Shown: positions 11,993-21,144 of the stretch, piece by piece
Numbering within the stretch: position 1 is the stretch's first letter
Layout: each line of letters begins with the position of its first letter
From: a virus
IMG/VR virus record: IMGVR_UViG_3300013101_001415
DNA length: 64,000 nt
Reading direction: 5' to 3' (one strand)
Program-made: the position numbers and the translations under genes
The notes under the pieces: model-generated
Told to the model about the DNA's origin: nothing
Seen by the model: only the letters and a program-made list of their open reading frames with translations
The model's database searches: none

Positions 11993-12318
11993 TGGCTATA
12001 TGCTTACACTGTCAAAAAGAATATTATAAATGGGAAAATGATAAAGGAACTATGTTCCAAACATTCTGCTCAGAAGAGTGCGTAAAAAAACATACTATAG
12101 CACTCTTGAATCAAGATTGGCCAAGAGAACCAGCTTTAAAATATAAAGTTCCAGTTGGAGAAATAGCTTGTCCTCATTGTGGAGCTGTGCAACATGGTGT
12201 TTTAACTCCAATATGTGGTGGTTGTGATAGATCATATTGGTCAATGAAAGAGTGCGATGAAAAGAATAATCCACATTTTTATGAACAAGGAGAATCAAGT
12301 GAAACAAACAGAGATTGA
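11992..12318 (+). CDS. Zn-finger protein
   Basis: CLHCQ, CSEEC, CPHCG, CGGC pairs. Confidence 0.45.
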   Translation: MAICLHCQKEYYKWENDKGTMFQTFCSEECVKKHTIALLNQDWPREPALKYKVPVGEIACPHCGAVQHGVLTPICGGCDRSYWSMKECDEKNNPHFYEQGESSETNRD

Positions 12319-12517
12319 GAATAACTTTAAATATCATGCACCAACACCAAAACAAGTTGGAATATATGGACAATTAAGAAATAATGGAAAAGATTTAGTA
12401 GAGTATATAAATGCTGTATGCCCAGATAGTAGAGAGAAATCTATTGCTATTACTAAAATTGAAGAAGCTATTATGTGGGCTAATGCATCAATTGCAAGAG
12501 ATGATCAGTGGCTATAA
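12299..12517 (+). CDS. hypothetical protein (probable GTG start after AGGAG)
   Basis: ORF track frame 12257..12517; AACAAGGAGAATCAAGTG context supports GTG start at 12299. Confidence 0.4.
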   Translation: MKQTEIENNFKYHAPTPKQVGIYGQLRNNGKDLVEYINAVCPDSREKSIAITKIEEAIMWANASIARDDQWL

Positions 12518-13754: not shown

Positions 13755-14252
13755 ATGAAAAAAATAAGATTTGTAATACATAACCATAAAGCGAGACGTG
13801 CTGGATATCATCAAGATTTGCGATTTGAAGATCCTAATAAAAGCAATCACTGGCACTCATTTGCAGTTCCTAAAACAGTTCCTTTACATTCAGGTAAAAG
13901 AGTTTTAGCAATTAAGACTCATATTCATTCTGAAAAAGAAGCTTTGTTTAAAGGAGATATTCCTGCTGGAGAATATGGCGGTGGTAATATTGAATTATTT
14001 GACCAAGGTGTTGCTACATTAAATAAATTTACACCAGCTCATATTACTATAACTATGCAAGGAAGAAAAGTAAAAGGATTATATCATCTAATTTCACTTG
14101 GAAATGTTGATACAGGAAAATTCAAACAACAACAATATCTATTATTCAAATCCAAAGTTTCAATCACACATCCTTTAAGAATTACTAAGCCAGAAGAAAC
14201 ATTCTATCAAAAACAAATAGCAAAATTTAATAAAATTTTAAAGAAAAAATAA
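13755..14252 (+). CDS. LigD-type 3'-phosphoesterase (PE) domain protein
   Basis: RFVIHNHKARRAGYHQDLRFE, SFAVPK, GDIPAGEYGGGNIELFDQG, GRKVKGLYHLI match the LigD N-terminal phosphoesterase domain. Confidence 0.8.
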   Translation: MKKIRFVIHNHKARRAGYHQDLRFEDPNKSNHWHSFAVPKTVPLHSGKRVLAIKTHIHSEKEALFKGDIPAGEYGGGNIELFDQGVATLNKFTPAHITITMQGRKVKGLYHLISLGNVDTGKFKQQQYLLFKSKVSITHPLRITKPEETFYQKQIAKFNKILKKK

Positions 14253-14261
14253 CAAATTGGA

Positions 14262-14296
14262 AACAATCATAATACAAGATTGTTTCCAGTTTTTCC
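14262..14296 (+). terminator. rho-independent terminator-like hairpin
   Basis: GGAAACAATC-loop-GATTGTTTCC followed by AGTTTTT. Confidence 0.55.
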
Positions 14297-14353
14297 GTCT
14301 AGATGGAAACTAAAATTAAAAAATTTACCTTATTTTAGAAACAATTTCTAAAA

Positions 14354-14370
14354 TTTAGAACAAATTAATA
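14354..14370 (+). promoter_or_regulatory. promoter-like motif TTTAGAACAAATTAATA (variant of a motif repeated at 22378 and 32361)
   Basis: Shared TTTAGAACAAA core about 45-60 bp upstream of a start codon in three long intergenic gaps. Confidence 0.35.
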
Positions 14371-14414
14371 CTAAACATATACAAATACTATTTTATAAAA
14401 AGAGAGGAAGTTAT

Positions 14415-16139
14415 ATGAAATCAGTTATATTGGAAGGTAGTTCTCTTGAAGTTGCAACAAGTAGATATCTCATGAAGGGAGAAAATTGGGATATGTGTGC
14501 AAATCGAGTAGCAGATACAATGGCAGCATCAGAAACAAATAGAGTTAAATATAGAGAAGAATTCCATGAGATGATTGGTACTATGGATTTTTTACCTGGA
14601 GGTCGTATATTAAGAAATTCTGGTAGAACAAGAGGATCATTGTTTAATTGTTATCATTTACCAATTAATGATAATATAGAAGATATAGGTCAATTCTTAA
14701 AAGAGAGTTTAATACTATGGTCAGAGGGTGGAGGGGTAGGAGCAAATTTTTCCAAACTTAGACCAAAGGGAGATGTAATATTAGGTAAAGGTGGAACATC
14801 ATCTGGATTAGTTTCGTTTGTAGAAGCTGCTGATGCTGTTGCTGCAACTATTGAAAGTGGCGGCGCCAGACGAGCAGCTGGTTTAGTTCATGTTGATGTA
14901 AATCATCCAGAAGTTATGGATTTTATTGATGCAAAATTAGTTCATGGTAAAATATCACATTTTAATATATCCGTAGCAATTAATGATGAATTCATACAAG
15001 CAGTTGAAACTGATTCAGACTGGACATTTAAATTTAATCAAAAAGAATATGGTACAATAAAAGCAAAATCAATATGGGATAAGATAGTTGATAATATGAT
15101 TAAGTCTGCAGAACCAGGTTTAATTAATTGGACTAACTTTCAAAAAAATAATTCATGGTATTATGATCCAGTTTTAGGCACGAACCCTTGTGGGGAAACT
15201 TGTCTATCAGCTCGTGATGTATGTGATCTTGGATCTTTAGTATTACCAAATTTTATTACAGGTAATATTAATACAAATTGGAAAAAATTAGAAAAAACTA
15301 TTTTTCTAGCTGTTAGGTTTCTTGATGATGTAATTCAAAGTAATAAATATGTTATGAAAGAAATTGAAAATAAAGCTAATACATCAAGAAGAATTGGTAT
15401 TGGAGTATTAGGAGTAGCTGAATATTTATTTGCTAAAAAAGCAAGATATGGATCTGAAAAATCTATTCAAGAATTAGAAAGATTAATGCAATTTATTAGA
15501 AATAAATGCTATGAAGCTTCAGTTGAACTTGCAAGAGAAAAAGGATCATTTCCTGCATTTGATCCTGTCTTATATGGTAAGTCGTCTTTTATTAGAAAAT
15601 TACCAGCATCTATTAGAATGGACATTAAAAAATATGGAATAAGAAATGTAACATGTCAAGCAATAGCACCAACAGGTACAGTTAGTTTATTAACACCATA
15701 TACAGGATCTGCAGAACCATTATTTGCTAAAGCATATAAAAGAAAAGATAGAGTTAGTGAAAGAATATATGTTCACCCAATGTATGAAACTATGTTAAAA
15801 AATGAAGAAGAAATGCCTGATTGGTTTGTTGACACTTTTGATTTAAACCCACAAGATCATTTTAATATTCAAGCAGTAATACAAAGATATGTTGATAGTT
15901 CAGTATCAAAGACAATTAATTTACCAAAAGAAACTACAACAGAAGATTTAAGTCAATTATTATTAGAAAATATAACTGACTTAAAAGGGGTTACTGTATA
16001 TAGGGATGGTTGTAGAGGTGAACAACCATTAAATAAAATTACTAAAGAACAAGCTATAGAACACATTAGAAATAACATAGTTAAGAGATCACTTGAAACA
16101 GGAGATGTTCAATGTTCTAGCGGAAAGTGTGATATATGA
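14415..16139 (+). CDS. nrdJ: class II (adenosylcobalamin-dependent) ribonucleotide reductase, monomeric type
   Basis: Active-site NPCGETCL motif (class II signature); 574 aa; C-terminal Cys pair. Confidence 0.75.
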   Translation: MKSVILEGSSLEVATSRYLMKGENWDMCANRVADTMAASETNRVKYREEFHEMIGTMDFLPGGRILRNSGRTRGSLFNCYHLPINDNIEDIGQFLKESLILWSEGGGVGANFSKLRPKGDVILGKGGTSSGLVSFVEAADAVAATIESGGARRAAGLVHVDVNHPEVMDFIDAKLVHGKISHFNISVAINDEFIQAVETDSDWTFKFNQKEYGTIKAKSIWDKIVDNMIKSAEPGLINWTNFQKNNSWYYDPVLGTNPCGETCLSARDVCDLGSLVLPNFITGNINTNWKKLEKTIFLAVRFLDDVIQSNKYVMKEIENKANTSRRIGIGVLGVAEYLFAKKARYGSEKSIQELERLMQFIRNKCYEASVELAREKGSFPAFDPVLYGKSSFIRKLPASIRMDIKKYGIRNVTCQAIAPTGTVSLLTPYTGSAEPLFAKAYKRKDRVSERIYVHPMYETMLKNEEEMPDWFVDTFDLNPQDHFNIQAVIQRYVDSSVSKTINLPKETTTEDLSQLLLENITDLKGVTVYRDGCRGEQPLNKITKEQAIEHIRNNIVKRSLETGDVQCSSGKCDI

Positions 16140-17521
16140 TTTTAATATGCGGACCTTGTGTTATTGAAAATTTATCAAAATTACGAAAAGATGCAAAAGA
16201 AATAGTAGCAATTGTTAATAAGTATAACAACATTGATTTTTATTTTAAATCTTCTTGTATTAAAGATAATAGAACACGAATTCAAAACTATTCTGGTCCA
16301 GGTTTTAAATCAGGAATAAAAAGTTTAATTAAAATCAAAGAGGAATTTCATTGTAAAATAACTACTGATTTTCATACAGTTGAACAAATAGAAACATATG
16401 CAAAATATGTAGATTTGATTCAAATTCCAGCATTTTTAGCAATGCAAACTTCTCTTGCAAAAGCTGCATCTAAAACTGGAAAACCTATTCATATTAAAAA
16501 ACCACAATGGTTATCTTCTGGTGATGTTAAAAAACCTGTATCAAAAATTAAAAATTTAAATAAAGATACTAAGGTTTTTATAACAGATAGAGGAACTACA
16601 TTTGGATATGATAATGTTGTAATGGATCCTCGACATATTAGACATATGAATGAAACAAGTAATTGTGATGCTGTATTAGTTGATATTACCCACCCACAAA
16701 ATCATTCAAAAATATATAATAGAAGTTATGCTTTTGATTTAGGAATGTCATCAATTGCATCAGGAGCGAATGGTTTGTTTATTGAATCAACAATTGATCC
16801 TATGAATGCTAGTTGTGATGCAGATTCTCAAATACCTGTTAAAGATTTATTAAAATATATTAAAGGTTTTATAAATTTATATAATTATATAAATAGAACT
16901 TATACAAGCAATATTTATGAAATAAAAAAATTTATAAAATCTCTAGATGAGTGGGATGTATATAATCCTATTACTATAAATGGAGAATTATTGATAGATG
17001 GTAATAGAAGAAAGATGGAAAATCAACATATAAGAATAAATGCAATTGCAAATAATATAAAACCAAATAGTTCATATTTAGATATGGGTTGTAATTCCGG
17101 TTTTATTATTAAAGAATTAATAGAATTAAAAAATATAAAAGCAACAGGTGTTGATATAGAAGATGATATAATAAAATTATGTAAGTTAATAAATAAAATT
17201 GAGAATTTAAATATAAACTTTATTAAACAAGATATAAAAAAATTTATTATAGAGTGTAGAAAAAATAATATAAAGTTTGATAATGTATCAATGTTATCTA
17301 TTGGAGATTTTAATGAAACAGTACTTTTATTAGATTTTCTTTTAAGTATAACAAAATATAATTTATTTTTAGAACCAACAAACCATGAAGGAATGTCAAT
17401 TTCTGAATCAAAAGAAAAAATAAAAAAATTATTCCCTAAAAAATATAATATTGAAATATTAACAATTACAGATTATCAAAATAGATTTTTATTGAAAGTA
17501 CAAAATGCTAAATACAAATGA
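16136..17521 (+). CDS. kdsA: KDO-8-phosphate synthase (KdsA) fused to a C-terminal class I SAM-dependent methyltransferase domain
   Basis: ICGPCVIEN, FKSSCIKDNRTRIQNYSGPG, IQIPAFLAMQTSL, KPIHIKKPQW, DRGTTFGYDNVVMD, VDITHP, GLFIESTIDP align along E. coli KdsA; C-terminal YLDMGCNSGFII (MTase motif I), GVDIEDD. Confidence 0.8.
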   Translation: MILICGPCVIENLSKLRKDAKEIVAIVNKYNNIDFYFKSSCIKDNRTRIQNYSGPGFKSGIKSLIKIKEEFHCKITTDFHTVEQIETYAKYVDLIQIPAFLAMQTSLAKAASKTGKPIHIKKPQWLSSGDVKKPVSKIKNLNKDTKVFITDRGTTFGYDNVVMDPRHIRHMNETSNCDAVLVDITHPQNHSKIYNRSYAFDLGMSSIASGANGLFIESTIDPMNASCDADSQIPVKDLLKYIKGFINLYNYINRTYTSNIYEIKKFIKSLDEWDVYNPITINGELLIDGNRRKMENQHIRINAIANNIKPNSSYLDMGCNSGFIIKELIELKNIKATGVDIEDDIIKLCKLINKIENLNINFIKQDIKKFIIECRKNNIKFDNVSMLSIGDFNETVLLLDFLLSITKYNLFLEPTNHEGMSISESKEKIKKLFPKKYNIEILTITDYQNRFLLKVQNAKYK

Positions 17522-18416
17522 AGTAAGAATAGAAACATGTACAATATGTAATTATTTTTGTATATTTTGTCCTCATTCCACAAAATTTGTTCGTAAAAAA
17601 GAAGAAATGTCGTTAGAAAGATTTTGTTTGATTGTTGATAAAATTAAAAAGGAATTACCTAACATAACCAATATTACAATTTCTGGTTTTGGTGAAGCAT
17701 TTGTAGACTGGCAAATATTAGAAAAAATAAAATATGCAAAAGAATGTGGATTTAAAATTCATATATTATCTAATGGTTATTATTTACCTTACCCAAGAGT
17801 AGATTTTTTAAATGAGGTGGGTGTTGAAGATATAAGAATTAGTTTACATTCAGTTTTATATAAACCATATCATATAATAACTAAAGCTCCTTTATACCAA
17901 TTTAGACAAGTGTTATGGAATATTGATTATATTATCAATGAAACAAATATAAATTTAATATTAACATTTGATATTATACCTGGAATTAATGATGACCAAA
18001 TTGATTTAATTAAAGAAAAATATGATGATTATGCAACAATTGAAATGTGGAAACCTCATAATTGGGTAGATGCTTTTAAATTTAGAAAAGGTGATATAGT
18101 AAAATCAACTTGCGGAAGACCTTGGAATAGTCCATATCAAATACAAGTTGATGGCACAGTTAATATGTGTTGTTTTGATTATAATGGAAAATTGTTATTA
18201 GGGAATTTTTTAAATCATACTATGGAAGATATATTTAATGATAAACCTTTTTTAGATTTAAAAAAACATCATGAGAATAATACATTAAATCAAACTAATT
18301 ATATATGTAAAAATTGCGATCAAAGAAAAGATCAAAATGATATTGTTATTTATAACAATAAATTTAAAAGTAAGGAAAGAATAAATAGGACTTCTACTAA
18401 TTATGAAAAAATCTAA
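17505..18416 (+). CDS. radical SAM enzyme with SPASM-like C-terminal Cys cluster
   Basis: CNYFCIFC (CxxxCxxC) near N-terminus; C-terminal CGRPW, CCFD, CKNCD cysteines. Confidence 0.7.
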   Translation: MLNTNEVRIETCTICNYFCIFCPHSTKFVRKKEEMSLERFCLIVDKIKKELPNITNITISGFGEAFVDWQILEKIKYAKECGFKIHILSNGYYLPYPRVDFLNEVGVEDIRISLHSVLYKPYHIITKAPLYQFRQVLWNIDYIINETNINLILTFDIIPGINDDQIDLIKEKYDDYATIEMWKPHNWVDAFKFRKGDIVKSTCGRPWNSPYQIQVDGTVNMCCFDYNGKLLLGNFLNHTMEDIFNDKPFLDLKKHHENNTLNQTNYICKNCDQRKDQNDIVIYNNKFKSKERINRTSTNYEKI

Positions 18417-19104
18417 TCAAAAAGTTGTTATTTTACATGGTAGTTTTAATTCTGGTAAAACAATAGTTTATAATTTATTTAAAAAAGAAAATAATTATAA
18501 ATGGATAGATATATCCCCAGATCATTTAAAAGATAATAAGGACGAAATAGAATATCAAATTGGTAAAAAATGGTTAAATAAAATAACACCTGATATTGAA
18601 TCATTAGAGATATTTAAAGGTAATTATTTTTTAAATTTGTTTAATTTGTTATTAAAAGAATTTCCTAATTATAATTTTGTTGTAAAACCAGGTGGGTTTG
18701 ACTGGGTTTTAAATAATAAGTTACCACCTAATATATTTTATAATATTTTTATTATTAGACATCCTAAAATTTGCTGGATGGTAAACACCACACATTTTTC
18801 AATAGATGAATTTATTAAAATGTATAAAAAAATATTAATTGGGGTATTTAAAGAAAAAAGTAATGTTATTAAAATTGAAGAGATTGGTAAAAATAAATTA
18901 ATGAACCAATTAATTAAACGAACTGATTTAAAACAAATTAAACCAATTACAAAATTTGATGAATTTTTATTAAAAAAAATTAATTTAGAAACAATTAATG
19001 ATGAATTAGAACAAATTGATGATAAATTAAAAGACTTAATAAAATATTTAGAGTATGATTTAGATACTATAGATATAAATTTAATATTAAAAAGGAATAC
19101 TTAA
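18403..19104 (+). CDS. P-loop kinase-like protein
   Basis: Walker A ILHGSFNSGKT at N-terminus. Confidence 0.5.
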   Translation: MKKSNQKVVILHGSFNSGKTIVYNLFKKENNYKWIDISPDHLKDNKDEIEYQIGKKWLNKITPDIESLEIFKGNYFLNLFNLLLKEFPNYNFVVKPGGFDWVLNNKLPPNIFYNIFIIRHPKICWMVNTTHFSIDEFIKMYKKILIGVFKEKSNVIKIEEIGKNKLMNQLIKRTDLKQIKPITKFDEFLLKKINLETINDELEQIDDKLKDLIKYLEYDLDTIDINLILKRNT

Positions 19105-19700
19105 TGAATTATTTTATTGACACAGCTGATCAGGATGAAATTGAAAAATGGAAAAATTTTGTTGATGGAGCAACTAGCAACCCATCATTATTAAATAAAT
19201 CTAAAACTAATGCAGATGAATTTTTTATTAAAAATAAACATAATTTTAATAAAATATTTATTCAAGTTAGATCTTTAAAAGAATTATATCACTATAACAC
19301 AAGCGATAAAATTATATTCAAAGTTCCATTGTTAATAACAAAAGATTTTAATGGATTTGATTTAATTAAAAAAATAAAAAATATGGGTTATAAAACTTGT
19401 GCAACTATTACTTATGATCTCTTCCAATTTGATTATGCTTGTGAAGTTGATAGTGACTATAGTATTGTTTTATGTGCTAAAAATAAAAATAAAGATTTTC
19501 TTATAGAATGTGTAAATCTAAAAGAAGAAAGAAAATATAATACTAAAATTATAGCAGCAAGTTTTAGATCTATAGTTGATATTAGAGATGCTGTAGAATT
19601 TGGTGCTGATTATGCTACTGTTCCTCCAAAATATATGGAAGGGTTGTTTTTTAATCAAGATGCAATTAATGATTTTAATGATTTTTATGGAATAAAATAA
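19104..19700 (+). CDS. fructose-6-phosphate aldolase / transaldolase-family (TalC/FSA-like) enzyme
   Basis: FIDTAD...GATSNPSLL N-terminal motif and Schiff-base Lys context IIFKVP. Confidence 0.65.
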   Translation: MNYFIDTADQDEIEKWKNFVDGATSNPSLLNKSKTNADEFFIKNKHNFNKIFIQVRSLKELYHYNTSDKIIFKVPLLITKDFNGFDLIKKIKNMGYKTCATITYDLFQFDYACEVDSDYSIVLCAKNKNKDFLIECVNLKEERKYNTKIIAASFRSIVDIRDAVEFGADYATVPPKYMEGLFFNQDAINDFNDFYGIK

Positions 19701-20446
19701 TGAGAACTGTAGCAGTTATTTCTGCAAGATTAAAGTCAACTAGATTCCCAAATAAAATTATCCACAAACTTAATGGAAAGAGAATAATAGAACATGTTAT
19801 TAATAACACATCTAAGTTAAATTTTATTGATGATATAATTATAGCAACAGACGATGAAGATTTTGGTATAAAAATAACAGATGAATTTGACCAGGTTAAA
19901 GGTTATTTTATAAGCGATGCATGTTGTGGGACTCATAGGACATATCAATATTTTAAATCAATAAATAAATATAAATATAAGTATTATGTTTCTATACCAT
20001 GTGATGAACCATTAATAAACCCAGAAGAGATAAATAAAACATTCTCAAATATAGATGAATTATTTAATAATGAAATTGTAACTTTCTATACAAAATTTTT
20101 TTGTATGGAGGATTTAACAAGTCCATTGTCTTGTAAAATAGTTACGTCAAATGAAAATTATATGGTTTATAATTCAAGAGCAGTAGTTCCTATTCTAAAG
20201 AATGGATCTTATTTACCTTTAGATGATTATAAAAAACATTTAGGAATTTTTATATTTCCTAGAAATGTATTTGAAGAACACGGTGAAAATTTATGGTGGG
20301 GTACAACAGATATTGAATCATTAGAGCAAAATAGATTCCTCCAAAGAAAAGTACTTATTAAATTATATGAAACTAAACATATAGGTTTTGGTATTGATGT
20401 TTATTCTCAAATAAAAAAAATGGAGGAAAGAATGAATTGTGTTTAA
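19700..20446 (+). CDS. kdsB: CMP-3-deoxy-ulosonate cytidylyltransferase (KdsB/NeuA family)
   Basis: VISARLKSTRFPNKI..LNGKRIIEHV, IIIATDDED, CGTHRT, IPCDEPLI, KHLGIFIFPR align with KdsB. Confidence 0.75.
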   Translation: MRTVAVISARLKSTRFPNKIIHKLNGKRIIEHVINNTSKLNFIDDIIIATDDEDFGIKITDEFDQVKGYFISDACCGTHRTYQYFKSINKYKYKYYVSIPCDEPLINPEEINKTFSNIDELFNNEIVTFYTKFFCMEDLTSPLSCKIVTSNENYMVYNSRAVVPILKNGSYLPLDDYKKHLGIFIFPRNVFEEHGENLWWGTTDIESLEQNRFLQRKVLIKLYETKHIGFGIDVYSQIKKMEERMNCV

Positions 20447-20507
20447 AGGGTATTATTATTTTATTTAGAACATATATAAAAGATTAAAGTAAAAAAAGGA
20501 GTACAAT

Positions 20508-20711
20508 ATGTCTTTAATATTAGAAGCAAATCAAATATGTCCACATAGAACAAATTGTCCATATAATGACTGCAACACATGTTTGGGTGGTGATCAAGAT
20601 AGATTAACTAGATTTGAATGTGATTATATTGAAAATGGAGTTTTTATTGAAGGTGGAGTTCAAAGATCACGATTAGATCAAACTGGTAAAATGAAAATCA
20701 TAATGGAGTAA
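20508..20711 (+). CDS. small Cys-rich protein
   Basis: CPHRTNCPYNDCNTCLGG. Confidence 0.4.
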   Translation: MSLILEANQICPHRTNCPYNDCNTCLGGDQDRLTRFECDYIENGVFIEGGVQRSRLDQTGKMKIIME

Positions 20712-20715
20712 TGAA

Positions 20716-21144
20716 ATGGATGATTATAAAGATAATGAAGTAGTTGTTCAAGAACTTTTAGAAGATTTTGGAGTGCAAAGAGAAGCATTAAATCAAATGG
20801 TTGTTGATGTTGAAAAATTAAAAAAAGATATCGATAAACTATTTCCAGAAAAATTAAATGCTAGATATGCAAAATTTTTTGAAGATAAAGTTAAAACTGC
20901 TGTGGCAATGTTTAATACTCTATTAGATATTAGAAAAGAATTAATTAAAACAACAAAAGATGAAATAGAAATTAGACGTAAGGTTGCTGGTAAAGGTGAT
21001 CTTAATGATCTGATTGATGTTAGATCCTTAGCAAAAAAGATTGAAAAATTTGATAAAACAAATAACATATTGAAGAAAAAGAAAGACAAAATAAAAGAAC
21101 CTAAAATAGCTCAAGCTTTAAAAGAGTTAATAGAGGAGAAATAA
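20716..21144 (+). CDS. coiled-coil protein
   Basis: Lys/Glu-rich heptads; immediately upstream of recombinase (UvsY-like position, unproven). Confidence 0.4.
   Translation: MDDYKDNEVVVQELLEDFGVQREALNQMVVDVEKLKKDIDKLFPEKLNARYAKFFEDKVKTAVAMFNTLLDIRKELIKTTKDEIEIRRKVAGKGDLNDLIDVRSLAKKIEKFDKTNNILKKKKDKIKEPKIAQALKELIEEK

Follow-up and report, generated by a model that had tools for sequence, protein, structure and literature searches.

The gene at 16136..17521 of the DNA analysed here, a 64,000-nucleotide stretch from a virus (IMG/VR virus record IMGVR_UViG_3300013101_001415; the whole stretch is referred to below as the window), joins a KdsA-like barrel to a SAM-dependent methyltransferase domain, and its product, in an uncultured jumbo phage, is probably a bifunctional enzyme of sugar biosynthesis, in which a Kdo-type synthase and a WbdD-like O-methyltransferase head a gene cassette leading to a CMP-sugar. 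Kdo is a hallmark sugar of Gram-negative lipopolysaccharide, and to our knowledge the viral copies of its pathway have barely been studied. In the scheme that we favor, the N-terminal half would be a metal-dependent KDO8P-synthase-type aldolase that makes a Kdo-type 3-deoxy-2-ulosonic acid from PEP and an aldose (phosphate), and the C-terminal half would place a methyl group on the Kdo-type sugar or on a close pathway intermediate. An FSA-like aldolase encoded downstream is the probable source of the aldose, a radical-SAM/SPASM enzyme and one or more P-loop proteins may tailor the sugar further, and a KdsB-like enzyme would convert the product to a CMP-sugar for transfer to an acceptor. The fusion itself may have arisen when two adjacent, overlapping genes were joined, and the methyltransferase would be an optional decoration and not a core step. 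The substrates, the methylated atom, any channelling between the two halves and the final acceptor are those that we infer.

The fused gene and its neighborhood

The fused gene and its direct neighbors are all on the plus strand:

14415..16139 (+), class II ribonucleotide reductase, upstream neighbor (Pfam; its stop overlaps the start of the fusion)
16136..17521 (+), whole fused gene, KdsA-like plus class I methyltransferase domain (461 aa plus stop, single ORF)
17505..18416 (+), radical SAM/SPASM enzyme, 303 aa (Pfam; position kept in all relatives)
18403..19104 (+), P-loop protein with GSFNSGKT and RHPK motifs (identified by motifs; zero to three copies in relatives)
19104..19700 (+), FSA/transaldolase-like aldolase, 198 aa (Pfam TAL_FSA, E 6e-16)
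19700..20446 (+), KdsB-like CMP-ulosonate cytidylyltransferase, 248 aa (Pfam CTP_transf_3, E 2e-28)

A preliminary description had read 16136-17521 as one ORF with a KDO8P synthase at the N terminus and a methyltransferase at the C terminus, and this reading held in full: the 461 codons run without an internal stop, with no missed frameshift, and Pfam assigns DAHP_synth_1 to the N-terminal part and a class I methyltransferase to the C-terminal part. The ATG of the fusion shares the sequence ATGA with the stop of the ribonucleotide reductase gene, and its 3' end runs 17 nt into the next gene. As anticipated, AlphaFold2 gives two folded domains for the full-length protein (pLDDT 88), and it predicts no fixed interface between them (pTM 0.63).

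The cassette has the order KdsA-like, optional methyltransferase, radical-SAM/SPASM, zero to three P-loop paralogues, FSA/transaldolase-like and KdsB-like, and this order is kept in at least eight distinct phage contigs (the contigs of P0125, P0128 and P0129 are too short for gene context). In this family of uncultured jumbo phages the Kdo-type cassette is modular, and the methyltransferase and the P-loop paralogues are gained or lost from one relative to another. The radical SAM/SPASM enzyme has a weak C-terminal similarity to BtrN. The P-loop protein belongs to no Pfam, NCBIfam or PHROGs family, and a profile search against PDB sequences returned insignificant P-loop matches only; we have the impression of a likeness between its GxxNSGKT and RHPK motifs and the PAPS-binding motifs of sulfotransferases. 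The FSA-like aldolase is matched below cut-off by the NCBIfam fructose-6-phosphate aldolase models and keeps the Schiff-base Lys context IIFKVP, and the KdsB-like protein scores 145 bits with the NCBIfam KdsB subfamily models, also below cut-off. Among the roughly 60 window ORFs with Pfam results (out of 72 that have 100 aa or more) we found no KdsD, KdsC or glycosyltransferase, nor did any of them match a phosphatase. PHROGs holds no family for the fusion, the radical SAM enzyme, the P-loop protein or the KdsB-like protein; positions 14000-21000 have no nucleotide similarity to 50,697 phage records, and a protein-level search of phage records found distant stand-alone KdsA genes only. Neither this cassette nor a KdsA-methyltransferase fusion in a phage is described in the literature that we searched.

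The KdsA-like half

The features of the N-terminal half are as follows:

16136..16897 (+), KDO8P-synthase-like TIM barrel, residues 1-254 (Pfam, 1fwn match, AlphaFold2)
16151..16159 (+), GPC motif with Cys8, a metal ligand of metal-dependent KDO8P synthases (alignment to 1fwn)
16262..16276 (+), KDNRT, a variant of KANRS (motif table of 90 homologues)
16427..16453 (+), PAFLAMQTS, with Met103 in place of the Arg of canonical PAFLCRQTD (1fwn alignment, motif table)
16685..16723 (+), shortened L7 loop ITHPQNHSKIYNR (1fwn alignment, motif table)

Pfam DAHP_synth_1, a (beta/alpha)8 barrel family, covers residues 1-239 with an E-value of 1.2e-44, and the barrel is modeled by AlphaFold2 with pLDDT mostly above 95 (block means 86-99). 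The best solved relative is the KDO8P synthase of Aquifex aeolicus (1fwn; E 2.5e-49, residues 2-247). In the alignment to this enzyme, C8, H186, E217, D228, K38, K43, K121 and R152 correspond to Aquifex C11, H185, E222, D233, K41, K46, K124 and R154, which we take to have the metal- and PEP-binding roles, so that H186, E217 and D228 are the predicted metal ligands in addition to Cys8. No variation is seen at C8, H186 and E217 across 90 homologues and little at D228, and the metal- and PEP-binding residues of this half as a group are invariant or nearly invariant. The window protein and canonical metal-dependent KdsA, represented by Aquifex 1FWN, have in common the TIM-barrel fold, the Cys-His-Glu-Asp metal site and the PEP-binding Lys and Arg residues, but the window protein differs in its Met for Arg106, its short L7, its KDNRT motif, a below-cut-off family score and the C-terminal methyltransferase domain.

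The KANRS motif marks KDO8P synthases apart from DAH7P synthases, and in its KDNRT variant the Lys, Asn, Arg and Ser/Thr are retained while the Ala is Asp across the whole clade. The Arg replaced by Met103 is Aquifex Arg106, the phosphate clamp for arabinose-5-phosphate, and L7 lacks the canonical PGGxGxxSGG segment, with about six to seven residues deleted; both changes are clade-wide in the motif table. NCBIfam KDO8P_synth models score 226 bits, under the equivalog cut-offs of 314 (TIGR01362) and 242 (NF003543). Judged by its sequence, the KdsA half is non-canonical, a character that the preliminary description had overlooked, and its substrate may be other than arabinose-5-phosphate.

A tentative alternative, which we consider possible but not probable, goes further and holds that the N-terminal half is not a strict KDO8P synthase but makes another 3-deoxy-ulosonic acid from an FSA-supplied aldose in an undescribed pathway, with the methyltransferase decorating the new sugar. 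The three clade-wide substrate-side changes (KDNRT, Met for Arg106 and short L7) and the score under the equivalog cut-offs point this way, as does the constant company of the clade, which is always found with a radical-SAM/SPASM enzyme and an FSA-like aldolase instead of KdsD and KdsC; a non-canonical KdsA clade that never lacks its radical-SAM partner could point to a new sugar. A bacterial relative is also suggestive: on a Deltaproteobacteria MAG contig a relative of the methyltransferase lies alongside a gene in which TAL_FSA is fused to CBS, a KdsB-like gene and a radical-SAM/SPASM gene, and KdsD similarly joins a SIS domain with CBS domains. Against this, the Asn-Arg-Ser/Thr of KANRS, which contacts arabinose-5-phosphate, is kept, the PEP and metal residues are all intact, and KdsD and KdsC of the host could provide the missing steps. 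This alternative overlaps with our preferred explanation and does not exclude it. For the preferred cassette proposal itself, the intact predicted metal-, PEP- and SAM-binding residues and the conserved gene linkage speak in favor, and the missing Arg106 equivalent, the incomplete L7 and the score below the NCBIfam KdsA cut-offs speak against, together with the lack of KdsD, KdsC and glycosyltransferase matches among the roughly 60 ORFs with Pfam results.

The methyltransferase half and its similarity to WbdD

The C-terminal half comprises:

16898..17518 (+), class I SAM-dependent methyltransferase domain, residues 255-461 (Pfam, AlphaFold2)
16898..16912 (+), junction TYTSN, residues 255-259 (DNA and protein comparison with the relative L010)
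17075..17104 (+), motif I YLDMGCNSGF, predicted SAM binding (family alignments, profile alignment)
17144..17155 (+), TGVD, with D340 ending strand 2 and aligning with WbdD D82 (profile alignment)
17366..17389 (+), family-specific motif FLEPTNHE (family alignments)
17468..17485 (+), family-specific motif TDYQNR with D446 and R450 (family alignments)

Residues of about 302-385 are matched by Methyltransf_31 (31.6 bits) and Methyltransf_25 (28.7 bits), against a cut-off of 27, and by MetW above its gathering score. Modeled alone with a 37-sequence alignment, the domain reaches pLDDT 95.5 and pTM 0.92, and it shows the Rossmann-like fold that had been expected, with the seven-stranded sheet and beta6-beta7 hairpin of the class I topology. 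Motif I, which the preliminary description had already noted, lies at residues 314-323, its glycine-rich loop LDMGCNSG being residues 315-322, and the acidic strand ends that it mentioned are D340, at the end of strand 2, D366 and D382. A structured N-terminal extension of the domain carries Y276, R292 and R300. In FLEPTNHE, E413 is invariant and N416 and H417 are nearly invariant. From its motifs and its model the C-terminal half is predicted to carry out SAM-dependent methyl transfer, and by sequence comparison it is a member of a small unnamed family. Viral contigs scanned with the family alignment yielded generic methyltransferases only, and a scan of reference genomes by the motif I pattern alone gave 38 loci, among which L016 was the sole true family member.

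The top structural match of the C-terminal domain, with its N-terminal extension included, is the phosphosugar O-methyltransferase domain of Escherichia coli O9a WbdD (PDB 4AZS, 4AX8), and many near-equal structural neighbors are RNA or small-molecule methyltransferases. In the WbdD structure D82 contacts the SAM ribose, Y16 and R203 are essential, with R203 helping to bind the phosphate nucleophile, and H132 and H133 are also essential as part of the phosphate site (PMC3482155). In the profile alignment D340 aligns with D82 and R300 with WbdD R36; in the low-confidence ends of the extended hhalign alignment Y276 aligns with Y16 and R450 with R203, and D446 aligns with D195 at a position where column confidence is also low. 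Among the 37 family members Y276 is nearly invariant and R450 is invariant. The H132-H133 pair of WbdD is not kept, as it aligns with D391 and F392 at a position that is variable in the family. The two domains are only about 20% identical, the phage protein lacks the coiled coil of WbdD and, by Pfam, its kinase domain, to which the P-loop protein of the cassette is unrelated, and the target of WbdD is the end of a polymannose chain. With respect to the O- or C-methylation left open by the preliminary description, the analogy to WbdD, a sugar-phosphate O-methyltransferase, favors O-methylation.

The same similarity raises the question of whether the methyl group goes on an anionic group and not on a hydroxyl, in the first place on the 8-phosphate as a WbdD-like methyl-phosphate cap, with the carboxylate as a second possibility. 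The WbdD cap is placed on mannose-3-phosphate, and a phosphate O-methyltransferase being the top structural match, together with the correspondence of Y276 and R450 to the essential Y16 and R203, would fit such a role. Fusion to the maker of a phosphorylated product would make direct chemical sense, and methylation of the 8-phosphate would account for a cassette without a KdsC phosphatase, no phosphatase having turned up among the window ORFs with Pfam results. We nevertheless think this unlikely, since the Tyr and Arg equivalences sit in the low-confidence ends of the profile alignment and an acidic D391 at the His site of WbdD argues against a phosphate nucleophile; moreover, cassettes without the methyltransferase exist, so that dephosphorylation is presumably left to a host phosphatase anyway. 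In its most far-reaching form, which is similarly improbable, jumbo phages and a few bacteria would have an undescribed pathway in which a clamp-less KdsA uses an FSA-made aldose, P-loop enzymes and a radical-SAM/SPASM enzyme akin to BtrN remodel the sugar, and the WbdD-like domain of the fusion transfers its methyl to an anionic group of the nascent product, most interestingly the 8-phosphate. If this were true, the cassette would yield a CMP-sugar capped by methyl phosphate, of a kind not known from nature.

Split, fused and absent states of the methyltransferase

In close relatives the methyltransferase is a separate gene directly 3' of kdsA (L010/L011, L012 and a JGI 2365-bp contig), and in L010 the two genes are in different frames, with the stop of kdsA overlapping the start of the methyltransferase in ATGATAGATAA. 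In the window protein TYTSN links the KdsA C terminus to the stretch that starts the separate methyltransferase gene of these relatives. More distantly, the neighbors of the methyltransferase in L135 are an FSA-like gene and a kdsA of 34% identity, and in L137 it lies beside radical-SAM and FSA-like genes. Other cassettes have no methyltransferase (L003, L004/L005, L054 and L055). Relatives with a separate, overlapping gene after kdsA, or with none, suggest that the fusion is a recent join of two neighboring genes, and that the methyltransferase performs an optional tailoring step that is dispensable for the cassette. Gene context ties this methyltransferase family to Kdo-type genes from these close phage relatives out to the Deltaproteobacteria contig. 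The preliminary description had suggested channelling from ulosonate synthesis to methylation, for which the measurements give no support: close relatives have the two activities on separate, overlapping genes or do without the methyltransferase, and AlphaFold2 predicts no fixed interface.

That close relatives encode the same two activities as separate proteins, and that no fixed domain interface is predicted (pTM 0.63), would also suit a methyltransferase whose action comes late, once the sugar is part of a glycan or glycoconjugate, as a chain-terminating or masking step, with fusion serving only co-expression and stoichiometry. Both WbdD and the O8 homologue of this enzyme add their methyl groups at polymer termini (PMC3482155), and as WbdD acts on a polymer end and not on a free monosaccharide, the target here could be a glycan. 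We give late action a low probability, however, because the methyltransferase gene always follows kdsA directly, at the point where the monosaccharide pathway begins, also in the relative whose KdsA is 34% identical, and because it is fused to kdsA here while unrelated methyltransferases are fused to KdsA in giant viruses. This adjacency and repeated fusion fit more readily with consecutive steps on a small molecule, as in the bifunctional enzyme that we prefer.

The view that the fusion is an artefact, a sequencing or assembly frameshift having merged two genes, or that the methyltransferase half has decayed and lost its function, is scarcely credible: since the separate genes of close relatives overlap in different frames a 1-nt error could merge both, and an A7 run lies shortly 3' of the junction, but the gene has 0 nucleotide differences across four independent contigs from four samples (those read as DNA), which effectively refutes a frameshift or assembly artefact, three to four more fused sequences (43-63% identity) stay in frame with differing junction sequences, and the window copy retains every family-invariant methyltransferase residue in a C-domain modeled at a confidence of 95.5. 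The identical 461-aa protein was found on eight contigs, P0002 and P0003 have the identical domain architecture at 52-53% identity, L136 is likewise fused, and L188 is probably fused too.

Relation to other viral KdsA proteins

The preliminary description had called the fusion architecture unusual, which is correct as to its rarity, since 3 of the 120 matches listed carry both domains (2188 significant matches in a database of 5.8 billion proteins), but it has precedents in CroV, Fadolivirus and giant-virus MAGs. The phage fusion is rare but not unprecedented, and it varies an arrangement of which giant viruses provide earlier, predicted cases. Among viral structures the whole model is matched best by CroV crov267 (E3T537) and Fadolivirus fdv948 (A0A7D3QWD4), with about 500 columns aligned, and crov267 is predicted to have an N-terminal KDO8P synthase and a C-terminal O-methyltransferase (PMC9614988). 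Contigs from giant-virus MAGs encode KdsA+Methyltransf_23 and KdsA+TylF+Methyltransf_23 (IMG/VR L072, L092 and L098). Like the phage protein, the giant-virus fusions, which are predicted only, have an N-terminal KdsA and a C-terminal SAM methyltransferase and are encoded beside a CMP-transferase gene. Apart from motif I, however, their methyltransferases, of the Methyltransf_23 and TylF types, are unrelated to that of the phage (an hhalign comparison with the L072 C-domain gave a probability of 8.6%). Their KdsA halves have the canonical KANRS, FLCRQTD and long L7, whereas the phage KdsA is not canonical, and they belong to viruses of eukaryotic hosts, with no radical-SAM or FSA-like partners described. 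Common descent of the phage and giant-virus fusions was rejected on the hhalign probability, the differing KdsA motifs and the split ancestors within the phage clade.

A synthase-methyltransferase fusion would therefore have been reached independently by giant viruses with unrelated methyltransferases, and the coupling of Kdo synthesis with methylation recurs. This convergence is the best available hint that Kdo-type sugars are methylated at the monosaccharide stage. We know of no enzyme identified so far for the 5-O-methyl-Kdo of green-algal scales, and the fused protein is a small, soluble and clonable candidate for a first Kdo methyltransferase. Surface sugars that carry a methyl group or a cap could affect phage adsorption, superinfection exclusion or recognition by grazers. 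The occurrence of 5-O-methyl-Kdo in these scales has been reported (PMC10762512). Cultured phages also carry kdsA and kdsB as stand-alone genes; in one of them, Synechococcus phage S-SCSM2R, KdsA is next to KdsB, and the pair has been read as surface-glycan modification genes (PMC12801897). This KdsA is only 32% identical to the window protein, and its 251 aa leave no room for a fused methyltransferase domain (PMC12801897).

Integrity and predicted structure of the fused gene

The fusion is encoded by one gene:
16136-17521 (+), single open reading frame of 461 codons, KdsA-like half followed by a class I SAM methyltransferase half

At the 5' end it overlaps the stop codon of a gene for class II ribonucleotide reductase, and at the 3' end it shares 17 nt with the next gene. 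The identical 461-aa protein is encoded on eight contigs, and the four contigs compared as DNA, from four samples, show 0 nucleotide differences across the gene, so there is no overlooked frameshift or stop between the halves. Two relatives, P0002 and P0003 (52-53% identity), share the two-domain architecture, the contig L136 carries a fourth fused sequence truncated by the contig end, and L188, whose reading frame is open to the contig start and whose junction is likewise YTS, is probably a fifth. An artefact is ruled out by the identical DNA in four samples together with the fused relatives.

The Pfam model DAHP_synth_1 matches residues 1-239 (E 1.2e-44), and three generic class I methyltransferase models exceed their gathering scores over approximately residues 302-385. 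The top NCBIfam models are KDO8P synthase equivalogs, matched at 226 bits, short of their cut-offs (242-314). Both motif I (YLDMGCNSGF at residues 314-323) and the acidic residues that end the strands (D340, D366, and D382) are located where the preliminary description had placed them. The full-length AlphaFold2 model (pLDDT 88, pTM 0.63) contains a TIM barrel at residues 1-255, with pLDDT mostly >95, and a seven-stranded class I methyltransferase domain in the C-terminal half, with no fixed mutual orientation of the two domains predicted. Residues 266-291 are poorly confident in this model because the alignment is only three sequences deep there, but when the C-domain was modeled alone with a 37-sequence alignment (pLDDT 95.5, pTM 0.92) they form a helix and hairpin within the methyltransferase domain, and the true junction is thus predicted to be only about five residues (TYTSN, 255-259). 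The observation made in the preliminary description is confirmed, and its interpretation, an unusual fusion that may channel ulosonate synthesis into O- or C-methylation, is partly supported, in that the domains and the rarity hold.

The KdsA-like half

Among solved structures, the N-terminal half is closest to the KDO8P synthase of Aquifex aeolicus, a metal-dependent enzyme (E 2.5e-49), and it keeps all four metal ligands as well as the Lys and Arg residues that bind PEP. Comparison of motifs in 90 homologues sets canonical KdsA against a clade made up of the window protein and relatives that are 50-66% identical to it.

KdsA motifs in 90 homologues
Canonical KdsA: KANRS; PAFLCRQTD; THSVQxPGGxGxxSGGxR
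Window clade: KDNRT; PAFLAMQTS; THxQNHSxIY

The window clade has Met at the position of the canonical clamp Arg, which we take to hold the phosphate of arabinose-5-phosphate from the adjacent subunit in the Aquifex enzyme, and its L7, presumably the gating loop of that enzyme, is shorter by ~6-7 residues. Proteins of this clade are always accompanied by radical-SAM (rSAM)/SPASM and FSA-like genes. For these three reasons we name the domain KdsA-like only, as its acceptor may not be arabinose-5-phosphate. The Arg replacement and shortened L7 extend across the clade P0001-P0055, mostly stand-alone proteins (alignment A4; window 16427-16453 and 16685-16723), and intermediate variants (FLAKQTS, FLAQQTS, THPNKNYP...) suggest a graded series departing from canonical KdsA.

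A WbdD-like methyltransferase family

The methyltransferase half falls into no specific family of Pfam, NCBIfam, or PHROG. Only four stand-alone relatives came up when 5.8 billion proteins were searched by indexed words, whereas exhaustive profile searching of 1.84 billion cluster representatives yielded ~45 full-length members, almost all ~200 aa long. The family motifs are YxP, R..Q..R, LDxGCNTGY, GxD, FDNV, (I/L)EPTNH, and TDYQNR, and a full-length member occurs on just one contig in a set of 185,579 reference genomes. WbdD, the Escherichia coli O9a methyltransferase acting on a sugar phosphate at the polymer end, matches the family profile with a probability of 97% over ~184 columns (extended modes; residues 1-213, the query being 100% identical to 4AZW). 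In this alignment R300 and D340 correspond to the SAM contacts R36 and D82 of WbdD, E413 aligns with E160, and in the lower-confidence ends Y276, D446, and R450 pair with Y16, D195, and R203. We regard the domain as WbdD-like; it is very probably a carbohydrate O-methyltransferase. Methyltransfer by WbdD requires each of Y16, H132, H133, and R203, and R203, H132, and H133 form the phosphate site (PMC3482155). The putative counterpart of Y16 is nearly invariant and that of R203 invariant across the family, but H132 and H133 align with D391 and F392, and the phosphate-specific signature appears only half present.

The gene neighborhoods of three further contigs tie the family to an ulosonate gene set, beyond this phage alone. 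L135 has in a row MGS-like, FSA-like, KdsA (34% identity), and separate family methyltransferase genes; L137 has the methyltransferase, rSAM, and further along an FSA-like gene; and L016, a Deltaproteobacteria MAG contig (JAUVAN010000052.1, 77-5576), encodes TAL_FSA+CBS, KdsB-like, rSAM/SPASM, and rSAM+DUF512 proteins and a 655-aa protein that ends in a family methyltransferase and whose N-terminal 460 aa have no assignment (compare P0132). L016 is of higher GC and binned as bacterial, with the same gene set in a different order. In L135 the four genes occupy 359-2741 of a 3.1-kb metagenome contig, and the methylglyoxal-synthase-like gene lies immediately upstream of the other three, an arrangement that may point to different aldose precursors in different lineages.

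Split, fused, and absent states

In the split state, a KdsA of 258-261 aa is followed by an overlapping, separate methyltransferase gene of 198-214 aa; the methyltransferase is absent from the loci L003, L004/L005, L054, and L055.

States of the KdsA-methyltransferase pair
Split: L010/L011 (P0121), L012 (P0122), JGI 2365-bp contig (P0023 and P0123)
Fused: window, L001, L002, L136, probably L188

The two genes of L010 are read in different frames, with the stop of kdsA overlapping the start of the methyltransferase gene as ATGATAGATAA, and in the window the KdsA C-terminus LYNYINR continues via TYTSN into the homologue of the L010 methyltransferase N-terminus. Rough neighbor-joining trees, which carry no support values, place split forms outside and fused forms inside, with some methyltransferase-less forms and one split form nested among the fused ones. 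From this branching we infer that fusion is the derived state and that loss or fission also happens.

Comparison with other viral KdsA proteins

The phage S-SCSM2R has kdsA and kdsB as separate genes, and its KdsA, at 251 aa (PMC12801897), leaves no room for a methyltransferase domain fused to it. For the fusion itself, giant viruses offer a precedent: CroV crov267 has the predicted annotation KDO8P synthase with a C-terminal dTDP-6-deoxy-L-hexose 3-O-methyltransferase (PMC9614988), and the CroV (486 aa) and Fadolivirus (504 aa) proteins rank first among viral structures matched to the full-length model, over ~500 columns. The giant-virus and phage methyltransferase domains share motif I but are otherwise unrelated (probability 8.6%), and the giant-virus KdsA half is canonical whereas that of the phage is not. 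Given these differences in both methyltransferase and KdsA type, the phage fusion is an independent, convergent event.

Of the 80 top-ranking KdsA loci in IMG/VR, 14 carry a C-terminal extension of at least 197 aa, including KdsA+Methyltransf_23 (L072 and L092) and KdsA+TylF+Methyltransf_23 (L098). A separate group among the 14, a commoner second viral fusion type (L062, L065, L066, L068, L073, L080, L083-L086, and L088), joins canonical KdsA to a conserved ~200-aa extension with the pattern …DGFLDTLNPxEVD…LQLEPxRRPxxWW…FLRERHDQKELDIFV… and no Pfam match.

The cassette and its proposed function

The window derives from an uncultured jumbo phage. It is AT-rich (~27% G+C) with every gene on the same strand, shows no nucleotide similarity to any of 50,697 phage records, and encodes multisubunit RNA polymerase beta and beta' homologues, topoisomerase II, SbcC, helicases, a T4 gp13-like protein, a RecA/UvsX homologue, an amidase, and a baseplate-spike-like protein; contigs of relatives reach 271 kb. 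All relatives keep the cassette order KdsA-like, [methyltransferase], rSAM/SPASM (303-305 aa), [P-loop], FSA/transaldolase-like (196-206 aa), and KdsB-like (246-251 aa), brackets marking variable members. Pfam results, which cover ~60 of the 72 window ORFs of at least 100 aa, contain no SIS-type isomerase (KdsD), no HAD phosphatase (KdsC), and no glycosyltransferase. The FSA-like protein retains its Schiff-base lysine context, and in L016 it bears CBS domains, as KdsD does; both features fit a possible role in supplying the aldose. The only informative solved relative of the rSAM enzyme is the carbohydrate dehydrogenase BtrN, a weak match confined to the C-terminal cluster domain.

On balance, the fusion would probably be a bifunctional synthase and O-methyltransferase making a methylated Kdo-type sugar for CMP activation. 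We know of no enzyme assigned to 5-O-methyl-Kdo, a methylated Kdo that occurs naturally. It is found in green-algal scales (PMC10762512). The more interesting lead may be the whole non-canonical cassette, with possible capping of an anionic group by the WbdD-like domain.

Across the window, AT content is highest in the cassette (16000-20000, 22-24% G+C), and within the fusion gene the methyltransferase half has 19.2% G+C and the KdsA half 25.9%. Identity between relatives is 58-73% for KdsA, FSA-like, and KdsB proteins versus 75-86% for the flanking RNR and rSAM. The P-loop genes lie between the rSAM and FSA-like genes (window 18403-19104; L002 6183-7764; L010 7161-9334) and number 0, 1, 2, or 3 by phage, two copies being fused in L010 (478 aa). 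This family has no relatives in Pfam, NCBIfam, PHROG, or PDB, and its GxxNSGKT and RHPK motifs may resemble sulfotransferase PAPS-binding motifs. Near the cassette are an APS-kinase gene in L003 and a Sulfotransfer_3 gene in L001.

Other genes of the window and its relatives

The window has a QueD/PTPS gene (56431-56859), relatives L001-L003 have QueC, MazG, dCMP deaminase, and dGTP_diPhyd_N near the cassette, and L004 (317-1333) encodes a short adenylosuccinate-synthase homologue (Adenylsucc_synt, 338 aa), PurZ-like by size. The QueD/QueC, MazG-like, dGTP diphosphohydrolase-like, and PurZ-like genes suggest a phage group with modified DNA bases, 7-deazaguanine and/or 2-aminoadenine. Further window genes include an odd trio for a phage (45372-50687) and several isolated ones:
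45372-50687, 849-aa protein with major-vault-protein shoulder and vault-repeat domains, then AAA ATPase and DUF2201 VWA/metallopeptidase-like protein
12299-12517, 72-aa ORF, annotated (precomputed) on the identical contig L006 as an Acb2/Tad1-hairpin protein (anti-CBASS/Thoeris sponge family)
1229-1783, Tpt1/KptA RNA 2'-phosphotransferase
13755-14252, LigD_N 3'-phosphoesterase domain protein
62542-63030, CreA-family protein
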